From Candidatus Bathyarchaeota archaeon (GTDB lineage Archaea > Thermoproteota > Bathyarchaeia > Bathyarchaeales > Bathycorpusculaceae), in NCBI GenBank assembly GCA_014859805.1, contig JACUTN010000001.1:1-26267 (forward strand): DNA of 26,267 nucleotides, in the 5' to 3' direction. Under the pieces are notes generated by a model. It ran no database searches, was not told the origin of the DNA, and saw nothing but the letters and a program-made list of their open reading frames with translations. The translations under genes were made by a program, and so were the position numbers. Below, piece after piece: positions 11,319 through 20,266 of this stretch (position 1 is its first letter; every line of letters begins with the position of its first letter).

Positions 11319-14111
11319 TTGAAAAAGTTTCCAAAAGAGGAATACAGCATACCGTTCTTTAAAGAAGAAGGTTACGTAAGGAAATTATGTCCCAAATGCA
11401 AAGAATATTTTTGGACGCAAAATCCAGACCAAGAAACTTGTGGGGAAGCAACCCCTGAAGGTTGCACATTCTACACGTTCATAAACAATCCGCCGACAAG
11501 GAAAAGTTACAGTTTACGTGAGATGCGTGAGGCTTTTCTGTCGTTTTTTGAAAAACATGGACACACCCGTATAAAGCCTTATCCAGTAGTGGCAAGATGG
11601 AGAGACGACATTTACCTAACACACGCGAGCATAATAGACTTTCAGCCATACGTAACCGACGGAATTGCTCCACCACCAGCAAATCCTCTTGTGATTGTTC
11701 AACCATGCATCCGCTTGGTGGACATAGCCAATACTGGTCCGACTTTCGGCAGACACTTAACAATTTTTGAAATGGGCGGGCATCACGCATTTAACTATCC
11801 GGACAAGGAGGTTTACTGGAAAGACCAGACTGTAAGATATCATCATGAGTTTATCACAAAAGAGTTGGGAGTGAAATCTGAAGAAGTCATCTACAAGGAA
11901 GACGTCTGGGTTGGCGGTGGAAACGCTGGTCCAGACGTTGAATGCATTGTTCGAGGTTTAGAAGTTGACACGCTCGTTTTCATGCAATACAAGGTCATCA
12001 ACAATGAATTCGTCAAGTTGCCCATAAGGACTGTTGACACTGGTTATGGAATAGACCGTTACGCATGGCTTTCTCAAGGTGTGCCGAGTTGTTTTCATGC
12101 AGTTTACGGCGGCTTGCTTGACAAGATCTTTGAGATGGCTGAAGTAGGCGGAATAGATAACGATCTACTGATGAAGGTAGCTGAGGTTTCCGGCTTAGTA
12201 AGCTTGGATAAAACAGCGAGTAGACTTGAAGCTAGAAGAAAAATAGCGGAAATTGTTGGAATGAAAGTGAAAGAGTTAGACGAGTTATTGCTTCCCATCG
12301 AAAACGTGTTCACAGTTGCAGACCACACCAAATGCTTAGGCTTCATACTTTCTGAAGGCATCGTTCCATCAAACATTCAAGAAGGATACTTAGCAAGACT
12401 TCTATTCCGCAGAGCCTACAGACTTTTGAAAATGTTGGACATAACAGACAAGCTTTACGATATTATGAACATGCAAATCGAATTCTGGTCCAAGGATTAC
12501 CCACATCTTAAGGAAATGCAAAACGAGATAATGGAAATCCTTTCAGTTGAAGAAGAAAAGTTTAAAGAAACCATAAAAAGAGGCGGAGGCCTAGTAAAGC
12601 GGATCGCAGGAGAGCTAAAGACAAAGAACATTCCAGAAATCCCAGTGGAAACCTTGACTGAACTGTATGATTCACATGGGCTTCCACCCGAAATTGTTAA
12701 GCAGTTCGCCGAAAAAGAAGGGTTAGAGGCAGAGGTCCCGGAAAACTTCTATGCTTTAATCGCAGAAAGACACATGCAAGCACCCAGAAAAGTGGAAGAG
12801 GCGAAACTGGAAGAAAAGCTGGAAACAACGGTTTCGAATCTTGCAGAAACCGAGCACTTGTACTATCAAGACCAATACATGAAGGAGTCTGACGCAAAAG
12901 TCGTCAAAGTAATAGACAGCGAATATGTTGTTCTTGACAAAACATGCTTCTATCCAGAAGGCGGAGGACAACCAGCAGACACTGGCTACCTAGTTTTTGA
13001 AGGAAACAAAGTTGAGGTTGTTGATGTTCAAAAAGTCGGCAAGGTAATTATCCACAAAGTGAAGGGCACAGTTCCAAAAGAGAATAGCCTTGTCAGCGGA
13101 GTCATTGACTGGGAAAAAAGATACAGTCTCATGAAGAATCACACCGCCACACACATAGTTAACGGTGCTGCAAGACGCGTTCTGGGGCAACATGTTTGGC
13201 AGTTTGGAACACAAAAAGGCGTCAATCGGTCTAGACTGGACATTTCACATTATCGCAGACTAACACTGAAGGAAGTACATGAAATAGAAAAATTGGCAAA
13301 CGAAGTGATTTCACAAAATATTTCTGTGGAAACTTCTCGGATGCCTCGAAGCGAAGCGGAAAAACTTTACGGCTTCAGACTTTACCAAGGCGGAGCTATT
13401 CCAGGAAAAGAAATACGTGTTGTAAAAATTGGAGACTGGGATGTTGAAGCATGTGCCGGGACTCACCTAAAAAACACGGGTGAAATCGGATTCATCAAGA
13501 TAATTCATTCGGAAAGGGTTCAGGACGGCGTGGAAAGACTTGTCTATTCCGTTGGAATTTCAGCACTTAAGGCAGTGCAAGAAAAAGAGGAAAAACTCTG
13601 GAAACTTTCGGAAATTTTGAATGCACCTCTTGATAAACTTGATAAAACAGCAGAAAAAATTGTCAAAGAATTAAAAGAAGCAAACACAGAAAAAAGAAAA
13701 CTCATCAAAGAAATAGCGGAGCGAGAAAGCACGGTTCTAGGCGGTAGACCAGAAGGCGAAGAAATCAAAGAAATAGAAGGCATTAAAATTGTGATGCGTG
13801 ACTTTAAAGAGGCAATTGATGTTGATCGCATGGTTCAAACAGCAAATCAGCTAATCAAAAGAGACGAAGCAATCGTCACAATATTTTATGGAACAGATGG
13901 AAAAAACGCGTGGATAACAGTTATGGTTGGAAAAAACGCCTTAGAAAAGGGCGCAAATGCCGGTGAAATAATTAGAGAAGCCTCAGCAATCATAGGCGGC
14001 GGAGGCGGCGGAAAACCTAGCTTCGCTCAAGGCGGCGGAACAGCCGTCAAAAAACTGCAGGAAGCTGTCAAAAAAGCCGAAGAAACTCTGAAGAAACAAC
14101 TGAAACCTTAG
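11319..14111 (+). CDS. alaS: Alanyl-tRNA synthetase (archaeal type)
   Basis: N-terminal CxxC zinc region, QPCIR, HLTIFEMGGHHAF, VDTGYG, DHTK, PSN, LYDSHG, editing HTATH and CAGTH, C-Ala GGGGGK. Confidence 0.97.
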   Translation: MKKFPKEEYSIPFFKEEGYVRKLCPKCKEYFWTQNPDQETCGEATPEGCTFYTFINNPPTRKSYSLREMREAFLSFFEKHGHTRIKPYPVVARWRDDIYLTHASIIDFQPYVTDGIAPPPANPLVIVQPCIRLVDIANTGPTFGRHLTIFEMGGHHAFNYPDKEVYWKDQTVRYHHEFITKELGVKSEEVIYKEDVWVGGGNAGPDVECIVRGLEVDTLVFMQYKVINNEFVKLPIRTVDTGYGIDRYAWLSQGVPSCFHAVYGGLLDKIFEMAEVGGIDNDLLMKVAEVSGLVSLDKTASRLEARRKIAEIVGMKVKELDELLLPIENVFTVADHTKCLGFILSEGIVPSNIQEGYLARLLFRRAYRLLKMLDITDKLYDIMNMQIEFWSKDYPHLKEMQNEIMEILSVEEEKFKETIKRGGGLVKRIAGELKTKNIPEIPVETLTELYDSHGLPPEIVKQFAEKEGLEAEVPENFYALIAERHMQAPRKVEEAKLEEKLETTVSNLAETEHLYYQDQYMKESDAKVVKVIDSEYVVLDKTCFYPEGGGQPADTGYLVFEGNKVEVVDVQKVGKVIIHKVKGTVPKENSLVSGVIDWEKRYSLMKNHTATHIVNGAARRVLGQHVWQFGTQKGVNRSRLDISHYRRLTLKEVHEIEKLANEVISQNISVETSRMPRSEAEKLYGFRLYQGGAIPGKEIRVVKIGDWDVEACAGTHLKNTGEIGFIKIIHSERVQDGVERLVYSVGISALKAVQEKEEKLWKLSEILNAPLDKLDKTAEKIVKELKEANTEKRKLIKEIAERESTVLGGRPEGEEIKEIEGIKIVMRDFKEAIDVDRMVQTANQLIKRDEAIVTIFYGTDGKNAWITVMVGKNALEKGANAGEIIREASAIIGGGGGGKPSFAQGGGTAVKKLQEAVKKAEETLKKQLKP

Positions 14112-14266
14112 CACGTGCGCATGGGTTTAGTGTAACAATAGTTATCGAGAGGAAGAGAAACAGTGACCTGAAATCCGCTTAATCTCCTGATGTTGAACTG
14201 GAACAGAGATTTTTTTTCTATAATCAACTTCAGAGTATGTAGCTCGGTCATATGGGGATGGTTATA

Positions 14267-14296
14267 AAGGCTTTTAAGAATTGAATCCTTTGAATA
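14267..14296 (+). promoter_or_regulatory. Promoter block shared by the two CBS genes (copy 2)
   Basis: AAGGCTTTTAAGAATTGAATCCTTTGAATA; one mismatch to 4079-4108. Confidence 0.7.
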
Positions 14297-14675
14297 CTTG
14301 TTGGGATTTGTTTTGCTGAAGGTCAAAGATGTAATGGCTACAACAGTTGTAACTGCGGATGCCGAATTGAACGTGAGAAAGGCAGTTAAGCGGATGAATA
14401 AACATGAAATAGGCTGTTTAGTTGTGATGAAAAAAGGAAGCTTTGTTGGAATATTAACCGAGCGTGACGTTCTGAAGAGAGTTGTAGCCGACGCTCGGAA
14501 CCCAGATGAGACGCTTGTGAGAGATGTTATGTCCAAGTCTTTGACAGTTGTAGGGCCAGAGGCAAGCTTAGAAGAAGCAACTTTCTTAATGCTTGAAAAA
14601 AGAGTTAAAAAACTCCCAGTCGTGAAAGGCAAAAAACTTGTAGGTATTGTCACACTTACTGACATAGCACGTATC
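14267..14675 (+). repeat. Dispersed duplication of promoter + CBS pair (copy 2)
   Basis: Aligns to 4079-4490. Confidence 0.9.
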
Positions 14676-15779
14676 GCACGAGCGAAAGGCCTGGAAAGAC
14701 TTGAACATGCAAACATCAAAGCAAACTTGATAGCTCACATGCAGAAGGTCAAAATCGGCGAAGATGTCAGACTAGAAATTGAGCTTATAAATGCAGGAAA
14801 AGGACCAGCGCTGCTGATGAGGGTTGAAGAGATCGTTCCAGAAGGTTTCAAGGTCATAAAAAAACCTAGAATCTCCCGCATAGAAAACCGCAACCTCAAC
14901 ATGAAAGGAAAAAGACTTGCACCACTAAAAACGGAAGAAATCAGGCTCATCCTAAGACCCACAACCAAAGGAACTTTCATTCTCAAGCCAAGAATAATAT
15001 GTCTAGACGAAACTGGGAAATACAAATCTTATGAACCTGAACCCGTAAAGATTGATGTGTCTGAGGTTGTTCTTCCACACCGGATTGCTACGGGATATGA
15101 GGATCTTGACAATTTATTGTTCGGTGGCATACCTGAACGCTATGCAGTCATCTTAACCTCGCCTTCGTGTGATGAAAAAGATTTGCTGATCAAAAGATTT
15201 CTGGAAGCAGGAGCAAACAAGGGTCAAATCACGTTTTACATCACCACAAGGGTGAGCGAGCTAGGGGCTTTAGTTGAAGATTTTCAATCAAACTTTTACC
15301 TTCTCATCTGCAACCCTCAAGCAGACTCGATGATCAAAAGCCTGCCAAACGTGTTCAAATTAAAAGGTGTAGAAAATCTAACTGATATCAGTATTGCTTT
15401 AGCCTTAGCTTTTCGTAAATTAGACAAGCCGCTAAAAGGTCCAAGAAGGGCTTGCGTCGAAATTATTCCAGACGTTTTGCTGCAGCATCATGCAGTTGAT
15501 TCCAGAAGATGGTTGAATGGAGTTATTCCAGAACTAAGGTTACAGGGTTTCACTACTTTGGCAGTGATGGATCCCGAAATGCATTCTGCACGCGAAGTTC
15601 GTGCTATCCTGAGTCTTTTCGAAGGAGAGATCAACATCTATGAGAAAGAAACAGAAAAAGGTCTAAGAAAGTTCCTTCGGATCAAGAGAATGTACAATCA
15701 GAAATATTTAGAGAGTGAACTATATCTGAAAAAAGAAAACTTGGAACATGAAAGAAGTAGAAAGTCTAAACAAAAGTGA
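14313..15779 (+). CDS. Fusion: CBS pair + beta-sandwich (Ig-like) domain + degenerate KaiC/RAD55-like ATPase domain
   Basis: CBS pair to 14675; beta-rich segment (VRLEIELINAGKGPA...FILKPRIICLDETG); RIATGYEDLDNLLFGGIP typical of KaiC/RAD55 N-termini, with TSPSCDEK in the Walker A position. Start TTG 14313 by paralog alignment (14298 also possible). Confidence 0.8.
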   Translation: MLKVKDVMATTVVTADAELNVRKAVKRMNKHEIGCLVVMKKGSFVGILTERDVLKRVVADARNPDETLVRDVMSKSLTVVGPEASLEEATFLMLEKRVKKLPVVKGKKLVGIVTLTDIARIARAKGLERLEHANIKANLIAHMQKVKIGEDVRLEIELINAGKGPALLMRVEEIVPEGFKVIKKPRISRIENRNLNMKGKRLAPLKTEEIRLILRPTTKGTFILKPRIICLDETGKYKSYEPEPVKIDVSEVVLPHRIATGYEDLDNLLFGGIPERYAVILTSPSCDEKDLLIKRFLEAGANKGQITFYITTRVSELGALVEDFQSNFYLLICNPQADSMIKSLPNVFKLKGVENLTDISIALALAFRKLDKPLKGPRRACVEIIPDVLLQHHAVDSRRWLNGVIPELRLQGFTTLAVMDPEMHSAREVRAILSLFEGEINIYEKETEKGLRKFLRIKRMYNQKYLESELYLKKENLEHERSRKSKQK

Positions 15780-15890
15780 ACAGAATTATAGTTTTATCAT
15801 GCACTGAAATCGGAGTAAAGAATTAAAGCAAGTTCTGCGCAATTACTTTACGGTGTCAAACTTGAGGGATAGCGTTCTCAACCAATAAAG

Positions 15891-15905
15891 ACAAAACATT
15901 TAATA
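15891..15905 (+). promoter_or_regulatory. BRE/TATA of leuS, probably leaderless transcript
   Basis: ACAAAAC-ATTTAATA ends 26 nt before the ATG; no SD is visible. Confidence 0.5.
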
Positions 15906-15931
15906 GCCCTCAAACCAGTTCAGAAACTTTC

Positions 15932-18814
15932 ATGGAGTTTTTAAGAAAGATCGAGGAAAAATGGCAAAAAAAGTGGGAAAAAGCAAAGATTTTCGAGGTA
16001 GACCCAGACCCGAATAAGAAAAAGCTCTTTGTCACTTTTCCATACCCATACATCAACGGACCACTCACCGTCGGTCATGCCTTCACGGCCTCACGAATCG
16101 ACTCGTACGCACGATTTAAGCGGATGCAAGGCTATAACGTCTTGTTTCCGTGGGCGTGGCACTGGACAGGTCAGCCGTTGTTGGGAGCAAGCCAACGGAT
16201 TGCAAAGGGCGATAAGGAATTTATAAGAGTTTTGAGGGAAGTTGATGGCGTTCCAGAAGAGGAACTTGAAAAGTTCGTTGACCCGATTTATATGGCAACA
16301 TACTACACAAAGGAAAGCAGAATTGCCGCAAAGCGAGCAGGCTTCTCAGTTGATTGGAGAAGAGAATTCCACACCATGATGCCAACCTTCCAGAAATTTA
16401 TCGAATGGCAATATGAAAGCCTAAGAGCCAAAGGCTACGTTACAAAGGGAACACATCCAGTCGTGTGGTGCCCAAAGGATCAAAGCCCAACAGGAGACCA
16501 CGACCGACAAGAAGGCGAAGGTGTTAGACCAGAAGAATATACGCTTATAAAATTCAAACTGGACGAGGAAACTTATCTGCCAGCCGCCACATTCAGACCG
16601 GAAACAATCTACGGAGTAACAAACATCTGGATTCATCCAGACGCAACTTATGTGGAAGCAAGGGTGGACAACGAAAAATGGATAATAAGCGAAAAGGCAG
16701 CTGAAAAACTGAAACAACAAGCAAGAAAAGTAGAAGTAAAACGGAAACTGAAAGGCAGAGAACTCGTAGGAAAAAACTTTGAAAATCCCATTACTAAAGA
16801 AAAATTGCCGATTTTGCCCGGATGGTTCGTTGACCCAGCACAAGCCACAGGCGTAGTTTACAGCGTTCCAGCCCACGCACCCTACGACTGGCTAGCATTA
16901 AAAGACTTGCAGGAAAAACCTGAAACCCTACGAGAGTTCAACATAAACCCAGAAACTGTGAGGAACATAAAGCCAATTTCCATGATTGAAGTCGAGGGCT
17001 TCGGCGAATACCCCGCCATCGAAATCGTGGAACAATTAGGTGTGAAAGACCAACATGACCCAAAGGCTGAAGAAGCAACTCAAATCGTTTACAAAAAGGA
17101 GTTCCACAGCGGAGTCTTAAAAGAAATCTGCATGGAATACGCTGGAAAAAAGGTTCGAGAGGTTAAAGAAACCCTACAGCAAGATTTTAGGAAACGCGGA
17201 ATCGCCGACTCCATGTATGACTTAACACAACCAGTTATTTGCCGATGCCTAACACCATGTATAGTTAAAGTTCTGCAAGACCAATGGTTCCTAAAATATT
17301 CAGACCCGGAATGGAAGGAAAAAGTGAAAGAAGCACTAAACAAGATGAAAATTTACCCGGAAACAGCAACCCCATGGTTCTTAACGGTGATTGACTGGCT
17401 GAAAGAATGGGCATGTGCAAGAAGAACAGGGCTTGGGACACCCCTACCATGGGGTCCAGGCTGGATAATTGAAACCTTAAGCGACTCCACAATTTACATG
17501 GCATTCTACACAATAAACAAACACATAAAACAACATGACATAAAGCCTGAAATGCTAACAAAAGAAGTTTTCAACTACATTTTCCATGGAAAAGGAAACA
17601 TAAAAGAAATAGTTTCACGGTCGGGAACAAGCACCGAAATACTGGAGGAAATGCGAAAAGAATTCTTGTACTGGTATCCAGTTGACCTAAGAGTGTCAGC
17701 CAAAGAACTTGTTCCCAACCACTTGACATTTTTCATATTCCACCATGTGGCGCTTTTTTCACAGAAACACTGGCCAAAAGCAATTGGAGTAAATGGCATG
17801 CTGATGATTGAAGGAAAACAAATGCACAAGTCAAAGGGAAACTTCGTAACAACGAAAAACTCCATTGAGGAATATGGGGCAGACGCCACGAGATGCGCGT
17901 TAATGTTGGGCGCAGAAGGCATGGACGACCCAGATTGGAGAAGCGAAAACGTCAAGGATATGAGAAACAAGCTTGAATCCTTCTACAACTTCGCAAAAAA
18001 CATAATCAAAAATGCAGAAAGCAGTGAATATGGACATTTAGAAAAATGGTTGATGAGCACACTGCAGCATCGCATATCTGAGGTAACAGAAAATTTTGAA
18101 GAAATGAAAACAAGAACATCCCTAGAACTAGCCCTGTTTGAAATCTGGAATGACTTCCGCTGGTACATACACAGAAAAGGAGAAGCAAAAACAAGAATCC
18201 TGAAAGAAGCATTGAAAATATGGCTAAAGCTACTCGCGCCATTTGCACCACACATATGCGAAGAACTATGGAGAGAAATGAAAGAGGAACACTTCATCTC
18301 ACTTGCAAAATGGCCACAAGCAAAAGAAGAACTCGTAAATGACCAAGCAGAGGAAAAGGAAAATCTGATAAACGAAATTATTGAAGACACACTAAACATC
18401 CTGAAAGCAACAAAAGTAACCCCACAAAAAATATGCTACTACACGGCTTCCCCATGGAAATGGACAGTCTACCTGAGAGTATTGGAGAAATCAAAGCACG
18501 GAGAAGTAAAGCTAAACGAAATTATGAGAGAATTCGCCGCAGAAGATGATTTAAAGGAGAAACTGAAGGAAGTCGCAAAATTCGCTGCAAAAGTAGTGCA
18601 AGAAATGAGCAAGATATCTGAAAAGAGAAAGGCAAATCTGTTAAAAATCGGCACGTTAAAGGAAAAAAAGGTAATCGAGGAAGCAAAAGACTTTCTGGCA
18701 GACAGGTTTAGGGCACGCATTATAATTTACAGTGAAGATGAAAAGGACCGCTATGACCCCAAACTAAGAGCTATGCTATCTATGCCATGTCGACCAGCAA
18801 TTTACATCGAGTAA
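15932..18814 (+). CDS. leuS: Leucyl-tRNA synthetase (archaeal/eukaryal type) with variant signature motifs
   Basis: FPYPYING, PWAWHWTG, DWRREF, CP1 ATFRPET and SVPAHAPYD, WACARRTGLGT, IETLSDST, YWYPVDLR, YGADATR, C-terminal PCRPAIYIE. Confidence 0.96.
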   Translation: MEFLRKIEEKWQKKWEKAKIFEVDPDPNKKKLFVTFPYPYINGPLTVGHAFTASRIDSYARFKRMQGYNVLFPWAWHWTGQPLLGASQRIAKGDKEFIRVLREVDGVPEEELEKFVDPIYMATYYTKESRIAAKRAGFSVDWRREFHTMMPTFQKFIEWQYESLRAKGYVTKGTHPVVWCPKDQSPTGDHDRQEGEGVRPEEYTLIKFKLDEETYLPAATFRPETIYGVTNIWIHPDATYVEARVDNEKWIISEKAAEKLKQQARKVEVKRKLKGRELVGKNFENPITKEKLPILPGWFVDPAQATGVVYSVPAHAPYDWLALKDLQEKPETLREFNINPETVRNIKPISMIEVEGFGEYPAIEIVEQLGVKDQHDPKAEEATQIVYKKEFHSGVLKEICMEYAGKKVREVKETLQQDFRKRGIADSMYDLTQPVICRCLTPCIVKVLQDQWFLKYSDPEWKEKVKEALNKMKIYPETATPWFLTVIDWLKEWACARRTGLGTPLPWGPGWIIETLSDSTIYMAFYTINKHIKQHDIKPEMLTKEVFNYIFHGKGNIKEIVSRSGTSTEILEEMRKEFLYWYPVDLRVSAKELVPNHLTFFIFHHVALFSQKHWPKAIGVNGMLMIEGKQMHKSKGNFVTTKNSIEEYGADATRCALMLGAEGMDDPDWRSENVKDMRNKLESFYNFAKNIIKNAESSEYGHLEKWLMSTLQHRISEVTENFEEMKTRTSLELALFEIWNDFRWYIHRKGEAKTRILKEALKIWLKLLAPFAPHICEELWREMKEEHFISLAKWPQAKEELVNDQAEEKENLINEIIEDTLNILKATKVTPQKICYYTASPWKWTVYLRVLEKSKHGEVKLNEIMREFAAEDDLKEKLKEVAKFAAKVVQEMSKISEKRKANLLKIGTLKEKKVIEEAKDFLADRFRARIIIYSEDEKDRYDPKLRAMLSMPCRPAIYIE

Positions 18815-18821
18815 GACTGCG

Positions 18822-19199
18822 TCAAATAAACCTATGTAGTGAACTTAATGTATGAGTATTAACCTTAACATGATAGTTTCTTCGACCACGACTGGTTGTT
18901 GTAATGTAGAAATCATCTTCTTCACGAAGTTCACTTCCATAAAAGAGAGCTAGAACTGTACGGCAAATATTTATGGTGGTCAATTTTTCACTTTCAACTT
19001 TCTTTTCTATTTCGTCTTGCAAAACTCTGGGATTAATTGTATAGACGGTCTCAGAACCGCGTCCGGTTCTTTCATAATGCATTTCCATCTCTTTCAGAAT
19101 GTGTTGAACAATATCGTAATAAGGTGTCTTGTGATATTTTATGAGATGTATGTAGTTCGCCAGAGGGATAGGAATATCACTAATGTGAACTTCAGACAT
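18822..19199 (-). CDS. Hypothetical protein (possibly winged-helix-like)
   Basis: 125-aa ORF, ATG preceded by GGAGAGGG SD-like sequence, converging on the leuS 3' end. Confidence 0.75.
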   Translation of the reverse strand: MSEVHISDIPIPLANYIHLIKYHKTPYYDIVQHILKEMEMHYERTGRGSETVYTINPRVLQDEIEKKVESEKLTTINICRTVLALFYGSELREEDDFYITTTSRGRRNYHVKVNTHTLSSLHRFI

Positions 19200-19339
19200 G
19201 TGAAGCCCTCTCCTTATAGTAGGTAATCAATTACCGTCTTAAAAAGTTTAAGGAAAAACATTCCATACGAATGTTCCAAAATTCATAACCTAACATGAAT
19301 AGATAAAACTATATTCAACAATTATATATGAAAATTCGT

Positions 19340-19432
19340 GGGTCCGTGGCGCAGCTTGGATAGCATTGTCCCAGAAAGCGCGTCGGCCTTCTAAGCCGAA
19401 GATCCTGGGTTCAAATCCCAGCGGACCCGCCA
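19340..19432 (+). tRNA. tRNA-Arg (anticodon TCT) with a 15-nt D-loop intron; CCA encoded
   Basis: Acceptor GGGTCCG/CGGACCC, D-stem GCGC/GCGC after intron removal, anticodon stem TCGGC/GCCGA with loop CTTCTAA (TCT at 19390-19392), T-arm CTGGG-TTCAAAT-CCCAG, G discriminator, CCA. Confidence 0.95.
19362..19376 (+). other. Non-canonical tRNA intron at position 20a/21
   Basis: AGCATTGTCCCAGAA; bulge-helix-bulge with central helix TTGG(19356-59)/CCAG(19371-74) and bulges AT|A and AA|A. Confidence 0.85.
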
Positions 19433-19525
19433 CTCGTGTTCGATTTCCGAACAGAAATTATAAATCAGTAATGCAATAATAAAGGGTAAATACTTCAGTC
19501 TTTAACTTATCGATGTATAAGGGGG

Positions 19526-20266
19526 ATGGGTATGAGCACACATGCAGAAGAGCTTAAACTTCGTTTAATGACCATTGAGTTGCTTAGAACTGCAAAGTAT
19601 AAGAGGAATATTACCTATCGTGAGTTGTCGTCTAAGACTGGCTTGCCAGTGACTGTTTTAAGTAGGTACGCGAAAGGGCATGTTTTGCCCAATACTGCGA
19701 GGGCGAAGCAACTTTGGAAAGTGTTGACGAAACTTGTTGGTTTGGAGAGGGAGCTTCGAAGCAGAATAAAATTTAATGAAGAAGGATACTTTGATAACAC
19801 TGAGATTATAGGTGACTTTAACATCCTTCAGCAGGCAGCCAATCATGCGCTCGCAAATTTTGCTGGAAAACGTGTCACAAAGGTTTTAACAGCGGCTGTG
19901 GATGGAATTCCGTTGGCTAGTATGGTTGCTAGCGCCCTTGGAGTTAACCTAGTAATAGCGAAGAGAAACAAGGAAGTTGGGGTTAAGGCTTTTCTTGAAG
20001 AAACTTATGCGCTAAGGGATTCAGGGGTAACCATGACGCTCTATGTTCCGAAGGATGCCATTAAGAGGAGGGACAGCGTCCTGATCGTGGATGACATGAT
20101 TAAGACTGGTGAAACTCAAGCTGCATTAGTAAATTTAGTTCGGAAAGCGAAGGCTGAAATTTCAGGAATTTTCTCCCTCATAGCTGTTGGAGATAAGTGG
20201 AATAAGAAGCTGAAGCTTCGTGAAGGATGTCCAGTAGAAGTCATAACTTATGTTAAGGCGCCTTAG
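19526..20266 (+). CDS. HTH (XRE-like) + phosphoribosyltransferase domain protein (PurR/Apt-like regulator)
   Basis: ITYRELSSKTGLPVTVLSRYAKGHVLP HTH; VLTAAVDGIPLA, IAKR, PRPP-binding VLIVDDMIKTGET. Candidate BRE/TATA CAGAAATTATAAA at 19452-19464. Confidence 0.88.
   Translation: MGMSTHAEELKLRLMTIELLRTAKYKRNITYRELSSKTGLPVTVLSRYAKGHVLPNTARAKQLWKVLTKLVGLERELRSRIKFNEEGYFDNTEIIGDFNILQQAANHALANFAGKRVTKVLTAAVDGIPLASMVASALGVNLVIAKRNKEVGVKAFLEETYALRDSGVTMTLYVPKDAIKRRDSVLIVDDMIKTGETQAALVNLVRKAKAEISGIFSLIAVGDKWNKKLKLREGCPVEVITYVKAP

Follow-up and report, generated by a model that had tools for sequence, protein, structure and literature searches.

Can a leucyl-tRNA synthetase (LeuRS) that departs from both signature motifs of its class still be the enzyme on which its organism depends, and did the two motifs change together? 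The question is raised by the leuS gene in a 26,267-nucleotide (nt) stretch of Candidatus Bathyarchaeota archaeon DNA (assembly GCA_014859805.1, contig JACUTN010000001.1), the whole of which we call the window. In the product of this gene, HIGH reads TVGH and KMSKS reads QMHKS. The preliminary description of the window had proposed a compensatory swap, with a His lost from one motif and gained in the other. The reading that we favour, with a probability of roughly 60%, is that the gene encodes a working housekeeping LeuRS in which His46 would be replaceable by Thr, the Thr form being an old, common allele that recombination shuffles with its His counterpart.

The window is contig C163 of a 1.05-Mb metagenome-assembled genome (MAG) of Bathyarchaeia (175 contigs, 84% complete), and the database homologues of its LeuRS are labelled Bathyarchaeia or Bathyarchaeota. 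The features on which the argument turns, compared with the Pyrococcus horikoshii LeuRS 1wz2, are:

15932..18814, plus strand: leuS, archaeal-type LeuRS (protein P0001), 960 aa, no internal stop
16067..16078, plus strand: HIGH signature, T46-V-G-H49 (ACC GTC GGT CAT), aligning to HVGH of 1wz2
16583..16624, plus strand: CP1 editing domain, Thr-rich peptide, residues 218-231, conserved relative to 1wz2 (PF13603)
16844..16888, plus strand: CP1 editing domain, block ending in Asp319, residues 305-319, conserved relative to 1wz2
17819..17833, plus strand: KMSKS signature, Q630-M-H-K-S634 (CAA ATG CAC AAG TCA), aligning to KMSKS of 1wz2

P0001 is an archaeal-type LeuRS, scoring 1112.4 bits on TIGR00395 (leuS_arch; cut-off 648.5) and 1251.7 bits on NF008957 (cut-off 677). 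Its Pfam matches are tRNA-synt_1, the LeuRS editing domain PF13603 and Anticodon_1, with the anticodon-binding domain PF08264 at residues 704-828, and its alignment with 1wz2 runs end to end (E 1.8e-270), reaching the last residue. The codons and this alignment bear out the claim that both motifs are non-canonical in an otherwise intact, full-length gene with a normal CP1 domain. In the first motif, Thr46 takes the place of the first His, while Gly48 and His49 are kept; in the second, the substitutions are at the first Lys and the middle Ser, and Met, the second Lys and the last Ser remain unchanged. The editing and catalytic domains are not degenerate: both editing blocks are preserved, and the sole consistent difference from the His alleles described below is at residue 46. 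The gene is probably the housekeeping LeuRS of the organism.

Thr46 is a real allele. The window encodes it with ACC, as do five other assemblies (P0002, P0003, P0006, P0007 and P0078); a further one, L034 (JGI24422J19971_10008180), uses ACT, and neighbouring synonymous sites there also differ. Logan contigs from three independent studies, of marine sediment and sediment metagenomes, cover positions 15932-16331 at depths of ~12 to 300; they carry single-nucleotide polymorphisms elsewhere, none at 16067-16069, and no indels. Thr is present in at least seven independently assembled proteins from JGI and ENA. Synonymous divergence (dS) between Thr alleles is 0.3-0.5 (maximum 0.49), with a ratio of nonsynonymous to synonymous divergence (dN/dS) of 0.12-0.19. 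These values are the same as in comparisons of Thr with His alleles, which indicates ordinary purifying selection on the protein.

In order to place this residue in a wider context, we surveyed 150 cluster representatives (50% identity) of archaeal and eukaryotic LeuRS, ~125 of which have a readable N-terminal motif. All of these ~125 have the first His except the window protein and a single degenerate sequence. In LeuRS of the archaeal/eukaryotic type, position 4 of HIGH is far freer to vary than position 1 and may be T, Q, L, G, F or N; the representatives P0126, P0171, P0123, P0129, P0142, P0174, P0185 and P0216 read HIGT, HIGL, HLGG, HLGF, HIGN or HIGQ, and P0126 combines HIGT with PMHKS. 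Thr at position 1 is unique to the window protein among the readable representatives. A text search of the literature for ‘QMHKS’ gave no match, one for ‘TVGH’ with ‘synthetase’ gave irrelevant matches only, and one for Bathyarchaeota with LeuRS gave nothing relevant. The active-site variant thus appears to be undescribed, as had been supposed.

The first His of HIGH stabilises the transition state of amino acid activation, and several class I enzymes become ~1000-fold slower when it is mutated (PMC10485003). Natural departures from it exist. In IleRS2 the first His is lost and a His at position 3 takes over, which results in mupirocin hyper-resistance (PMC10485003), whereas bacterial TrpRS naturally carries TIGN, with Thr at the first HIGH position (PMC10201369). 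HIGH and KMSKS both act on ATP binding and on the transition state (PMC10485003; PMC5059758).

The QMHKS loop has a very different distribution from that of Thr46. Using MAFFT with its faster settings, we aligned the 120 closest database proteins, all of them at least 70% identical to the query. QMHKS is found in nearly all of these homologues, with QMHRH or QLHKH in a few; seven lack His at HIGH position 1, and in ~110 of the 120 QMHKS is paired with HVGH, HAGH or HIGH. Among 80 species-level genomes, ~60 have QMHKS, as the motif of their sole LeuRS, 4 have QMHRH and 3 EMHKS; His1 is present in every genome of this set whose N-terminal motif is readable, and ~50 genomes with both motifs readable combine it with QMHKS. 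Other families of the same order share the GPLH[VI]GH context and have the canonical KMSKS, and QMHKS is thus a derived state fixed at about the family level. It extends down to 63% identity to the query, whereas all Thr46 sequences fall in a clade that is at least 88% identical to it. In the survey of 150 representatives xMHKS recurs as TMHKS, PMHKS and GMHKS, with the looser forms ELHKS and MMHSS, and the first His is always present in the xMHKS representatives with a readable N-terminal motif. Furthermore, a search for co-substitutions between the Thr alleles and the close His alleles found no fixed residue other than 46.

By its distribution, then, QMHKS arose from KMSKS long ago and became fixed in one family-level group of Bathyarchaeia; on the same comparisons, Thr46 is a separate and much younger change. 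The compensatory swap is not borne out. MHKS is common and independent of TVGH in close relatives, which the preliminary description had itself named as grounds for rejection; it also reaches far beyond Thr46, and nothing co-varies with residue 46. What is possible, at most, is a one-way permissive role of the older His632 toward Thr46.

Some relatives of the window protein carry a further form of the loop. In P0015, P0016, P0023, P0035 and P0050, which are 76-81% identical to the query, QMHRH followed by LGN stands where KMSKS-KGN is expected, such that even the catalytic second Lys is replaced by Arg; P0030 reads QLHKH. Four genomes with this form were checked (L123, L126, L172 and L180), and none of them has a LeuRS above the family cut-off other than the QMHRH enzyme. 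QMHRH occurs in at least three separate places on the tree, which hints at another recombining loop haplotype.

We also considered whether the Thr and His forms might be paralogues. Searches of the MAG with TIGR00395 and TIGR00396 recovered, besides this leuS, only a MetRS (C97) and the N-terminal part of a ValRS (C135). The last was considered as the N-terminus of a second LeuRS and rejected, since it scores best as a ValRS. The second canonical leuS that the preliminary description had suggested looking for was not found in this 84%-complete genome (G000), nor was any other second LeuRS, including one of the bacterial type. Six other genomes of the genus were examined: five carry a single leuS (one of the five is 100% complete) and the sixth carries none; the two adjacent LeuRS matches in G007 represent one split gene. 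Two truly different LeuRS genes were found in only one of 40 relatives, G038, which belongs to another family of the order. In addition, the His-allele genomes L120 (= G001) and L036 match positions 14932-19809 colinearly at ~94%. As the flanks are colinear with those of His-allele genomes, the Thr and His forms are alleles and not paralogues.

Both alleles are common in the wild. Among the distinct proteins from five 90%-identity clusters around the query and three further cluster representatives, 12 have Thr and 13 have His at residue 46. Genes of both kinds were assembled from the same metagenome (JGI 3300024433), namely: Ga0209986_10008076 (L117) with Thr and Ga0209986_10007922 (L038) with His, and both alleles thus coexist in one community. 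In an allele tree built without the motif columns, the basal lineages have Thr and the crown mixes Thr and His, with at least four changes of state. A simple pattern with one origin of Thr was rejected, since the two states interleave on this tree and on a first tree from a quick search. Each change of state needs two adjacent substitutions (CA to AC or the reverse), so recombination of two old alleles is far likelier than recurrent mutation.

Across the whole gene, mean divergence (Dxy) between the crown Thr and His alleles is 0.073, only slightly above the diversity within the two groups (0.061 and 0.062). Between all Thr alleles and the close His alleles there are six fixed nucleotide differences in 2883 nt, five of which lie in nt 136-147 (codons 46-49), where the core of the Thr haplotype reads ACC GTC GGT CAT vs. 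CAC GTA GGC CAC in the close His alleles. The 30-nt segment that contains codon 46 has the highest net divergence of 96 such segments, 0.147 (mean 0.011, SD 0.023).

Several of these relatives also differ directly upstream of leuS. A 493-aa open reading frame (ORF; 14298-15779) precedes leuS in the window, and the segment that contains it (14106-15811) is absent from several close relatives. L035 has ~160 nt in its place, L038 also lacks the segment, and the upstream neighbour of leuS in L114, L115 and L119 is an AroM-family gene instead. Its absence from several close relatives points to a recent insertion or deletion beside leuS.

Other class I synthetase genes of the MAG and its relatives were noted in the course of these searches. 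Among the leuS loci of relatives (L005-L033), within one GTDB order and even within one family, LeuRS is either of ‘type A’ (NGPLHVGH..FT) or of ‘type B’ (NSPQHIGH.RTY, KMSKSFGN). The two types are ~47% identical, and nearly all genomes have a single type, a pattern that suggests replacement or differential loss. G038 (L200, L201) carries a type A gene together with a gene of a third, 876-aa type with KMSKHLGN. The ValRS fragment of the MAG lies at the end of contig C135 (L003:3-356, minus strand) and its HIGH motif reads HMGN. IleRS was not detected in the MAG by the class I searches, probably owing to incomplete assembly.

Taken together, these results suggest the following course of events. 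The QMHKS loop would have been fixed early in the lineage, with Met, the catalytic second Lys and Ser retained, and Thr46 and His46 would now segregate, at similar frequencies, in a small complex of recombining Bathyarchaeia populations from sediment. The Thr46 enzyme is probably active. Its sole-copy status and the purifying selection on it point to an enzyme that would still activate leucine and charge tRNALeu. The hydroxyl group of Thr46 may partly stand in for the imidazole of His at the ATP phosphates, as does the Thr of TIGN in TrpRS; alternatively, this LeuRS lineage may depend less on His. Slow-growing subsurface archaea could tolerate any loss of rate.

Several points weigh against this reading. 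The ~1000-fold slower His mutants of other class I enzymes (PMC10485003) make it unsafe to assume that the Thr46 enzyme is fully active. With the MAG 84% complete, a second LeuRS may, though improbably, lie in the missing part, and G038, from another family of the order, does carry two different LeuRS genes. The evidence that Thr46 is real is at the level of assembled contigs. Finally, the sharp peak of divergence at codons 46-49 suggests more than neutral drift, e.g. balancing selection or an imported tract.

The best-surviving alternative, which we regard as possible though doubtful, is permissive epistasis: the older His632, or another lineage-wide change in the active site, e.g. GPL or AF beside HIGH, may already share the transition-state role of His46, which would then be dispensable in this lineage only. 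The joint action of the two motifs on ATP and the transition state, noted above, is in keeping with this, as is the fact that the only natural Thr1 among the ~125 representatives and the 80 species genomes lies inside the xMHKS lineage; the tolerance of QMHRH as sole LeuRS in the same lineage suggests a remodelled ATP site. However, one origin in one lineage provides no statistical covariation, ~60 QMHKS species keep His1, and the shared QMHKS background still carries His alleles alongside the Thr alleles.

It is also conceivable, but unlikely, that Thr46 is a resistance allele under balancing selection, which would bind a natural inhibitor of the ATP or adenylate site less tightly at some catalytic cost, comparable to the G/AXHH motif of IleRS2 with mupirocin. 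The similar frequency of the two alleles and their presence in the same sample are compatible with such an allele, as are the age of the Thr alleles (dS up to 0.49) and the sharp rise in differentiation at codons 46-49 of a gene that is elsewhere undifferentiated. There are also precedents in the altered HIGH motif of hyper-resistant IleRS2 (PMC10485003) and in the TM84-immune LeuRS AgnB2, with KQSKS and shifts near HIGH (PMC5059758). Yet a short imported recombination tract explains the divergence peak equally well; neither an inhibitor nor a producer nor a biosynthetic cluster was seen, and none is known; and, unlike in IleRS2, there is neither a relocated His in the motif nor a pair of sensitive and resistant paralogues. 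In its fullest form, which we consider equally improbable, balancing selection would hold Thr46 and His46 in anoxic sediments, with Thr guarding the sole LeuRS against the inhibitor and the QMHKS loop making the cost bearable. If true, this would be the LeuRS counterpart of the IleRS2 hyper-resistance motif, caught while polymorphic.

Very unlikely is a crippled or non-translational Thr46 protein, with a canonical LeuRS in the unassembled 16% of the genome. The MAG is indeed incomplete, with no detectable IleRS and only a fragment of ValRS, and duplications of archaeal LeuRS exist, as in G038 with its two types. Sulfolobaceae are reported by Weitzel et al. (2020) to carry both LeuRS-F and LeuRS-I. 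Against this, the other genomes of the genus have no second gene, and the Thr allele occupies the locus (94% colinear) at which a 100%-complete congener has its only leuS. Moreover, Thr and His proteins share one gene pool apart from residue 46, dN/dS is as low as for the His alleles, and the editing and tRNA-binding parts are intact.

A sequencing or assembly artefact, in which paired indels in the C run turned CAC into ACC, was a caveat of the preliminary description and is excluded at the contig level: although CTC-CAC and CTC-ACC differ merely in the order of two adjacent bases, ACC stands without indels in the contigs of three studies, ACT encodes Thr elsewhere, and at least seven independent proteins have it, which leaves the artefact a negligible chance.

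The Thr46 LeuRS is, as judged from its sequence, a new natural variant of a known enzyme. Coexisting Thr and His alleles of a sole LeuRS, in which only residue 46 consistently separates the two groups, amount to matched enzymes. With such a pair, the degree to which the first His of HIGH is essential can be tested directly. It also bears on whether an xMHKS, or even QMHRH, loop has re-partitioned the stabilisation of the transition state, and on whether signature variants in uncultured archaea reflect inhibitor pressure. For annotation there is a warning: QMHKS is normal for a large group of Bathyarchaeia and is not a defect.

Compared with known systems, the window enzyme shares with the P. 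horikoshii LeuRS (1WZ2/1WKB) the order of its parts, from the Rossmann core through CP1, with its Thr-rich and Asp blocks, to the anticodon-binding domain and the C-terminal domain. It differs in having TVGH for HVGH and QMHKS for KMSKS, and in the changes of GHL to GPL and AR to AF beside HIGH, which are common to the whole type A lineage of Bathyarchaeia. AgnB2, the TM84-immune LeuRS of Agrobacterium radiobacter K84, also has a non-canonical KMSKS loop, which reads KQSKS, and subtle repositioning near HIGH (PMC5059758). AgnB2 is a plasmid-borne second LeuRS of the bacterial type in an antibiotic producer and has a canonical HIGH, whereas the window gene is chromosomal, sole and of the archaeal type. 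TrpRS with TIGN likewise has Thr in place of the first His of HIGH and is active (PMC10201369); there the motif has Asn at position 4, is family-wide and belongs to a co-adapted site, while the window LeuRS keeps the His at position 4 and its Thr is a recent allele. Finally, IleRS2 with G/AXHH (Brkic et al. 2023, PMC10485003) is, like the window enzyme, a natural class I synthetase without the first His; it is functional, and its change arose, and reverted, more than once in evolution (PMC10485003). IleRS2 has a known inhibitor, unlike the window LeuRS, and its state is fixed in clades. The window LeuRS keeps Gly48 at position 3, so that no His has been relocated within its HIGH motif, and its Thr46 is polymorphic within a species complex.

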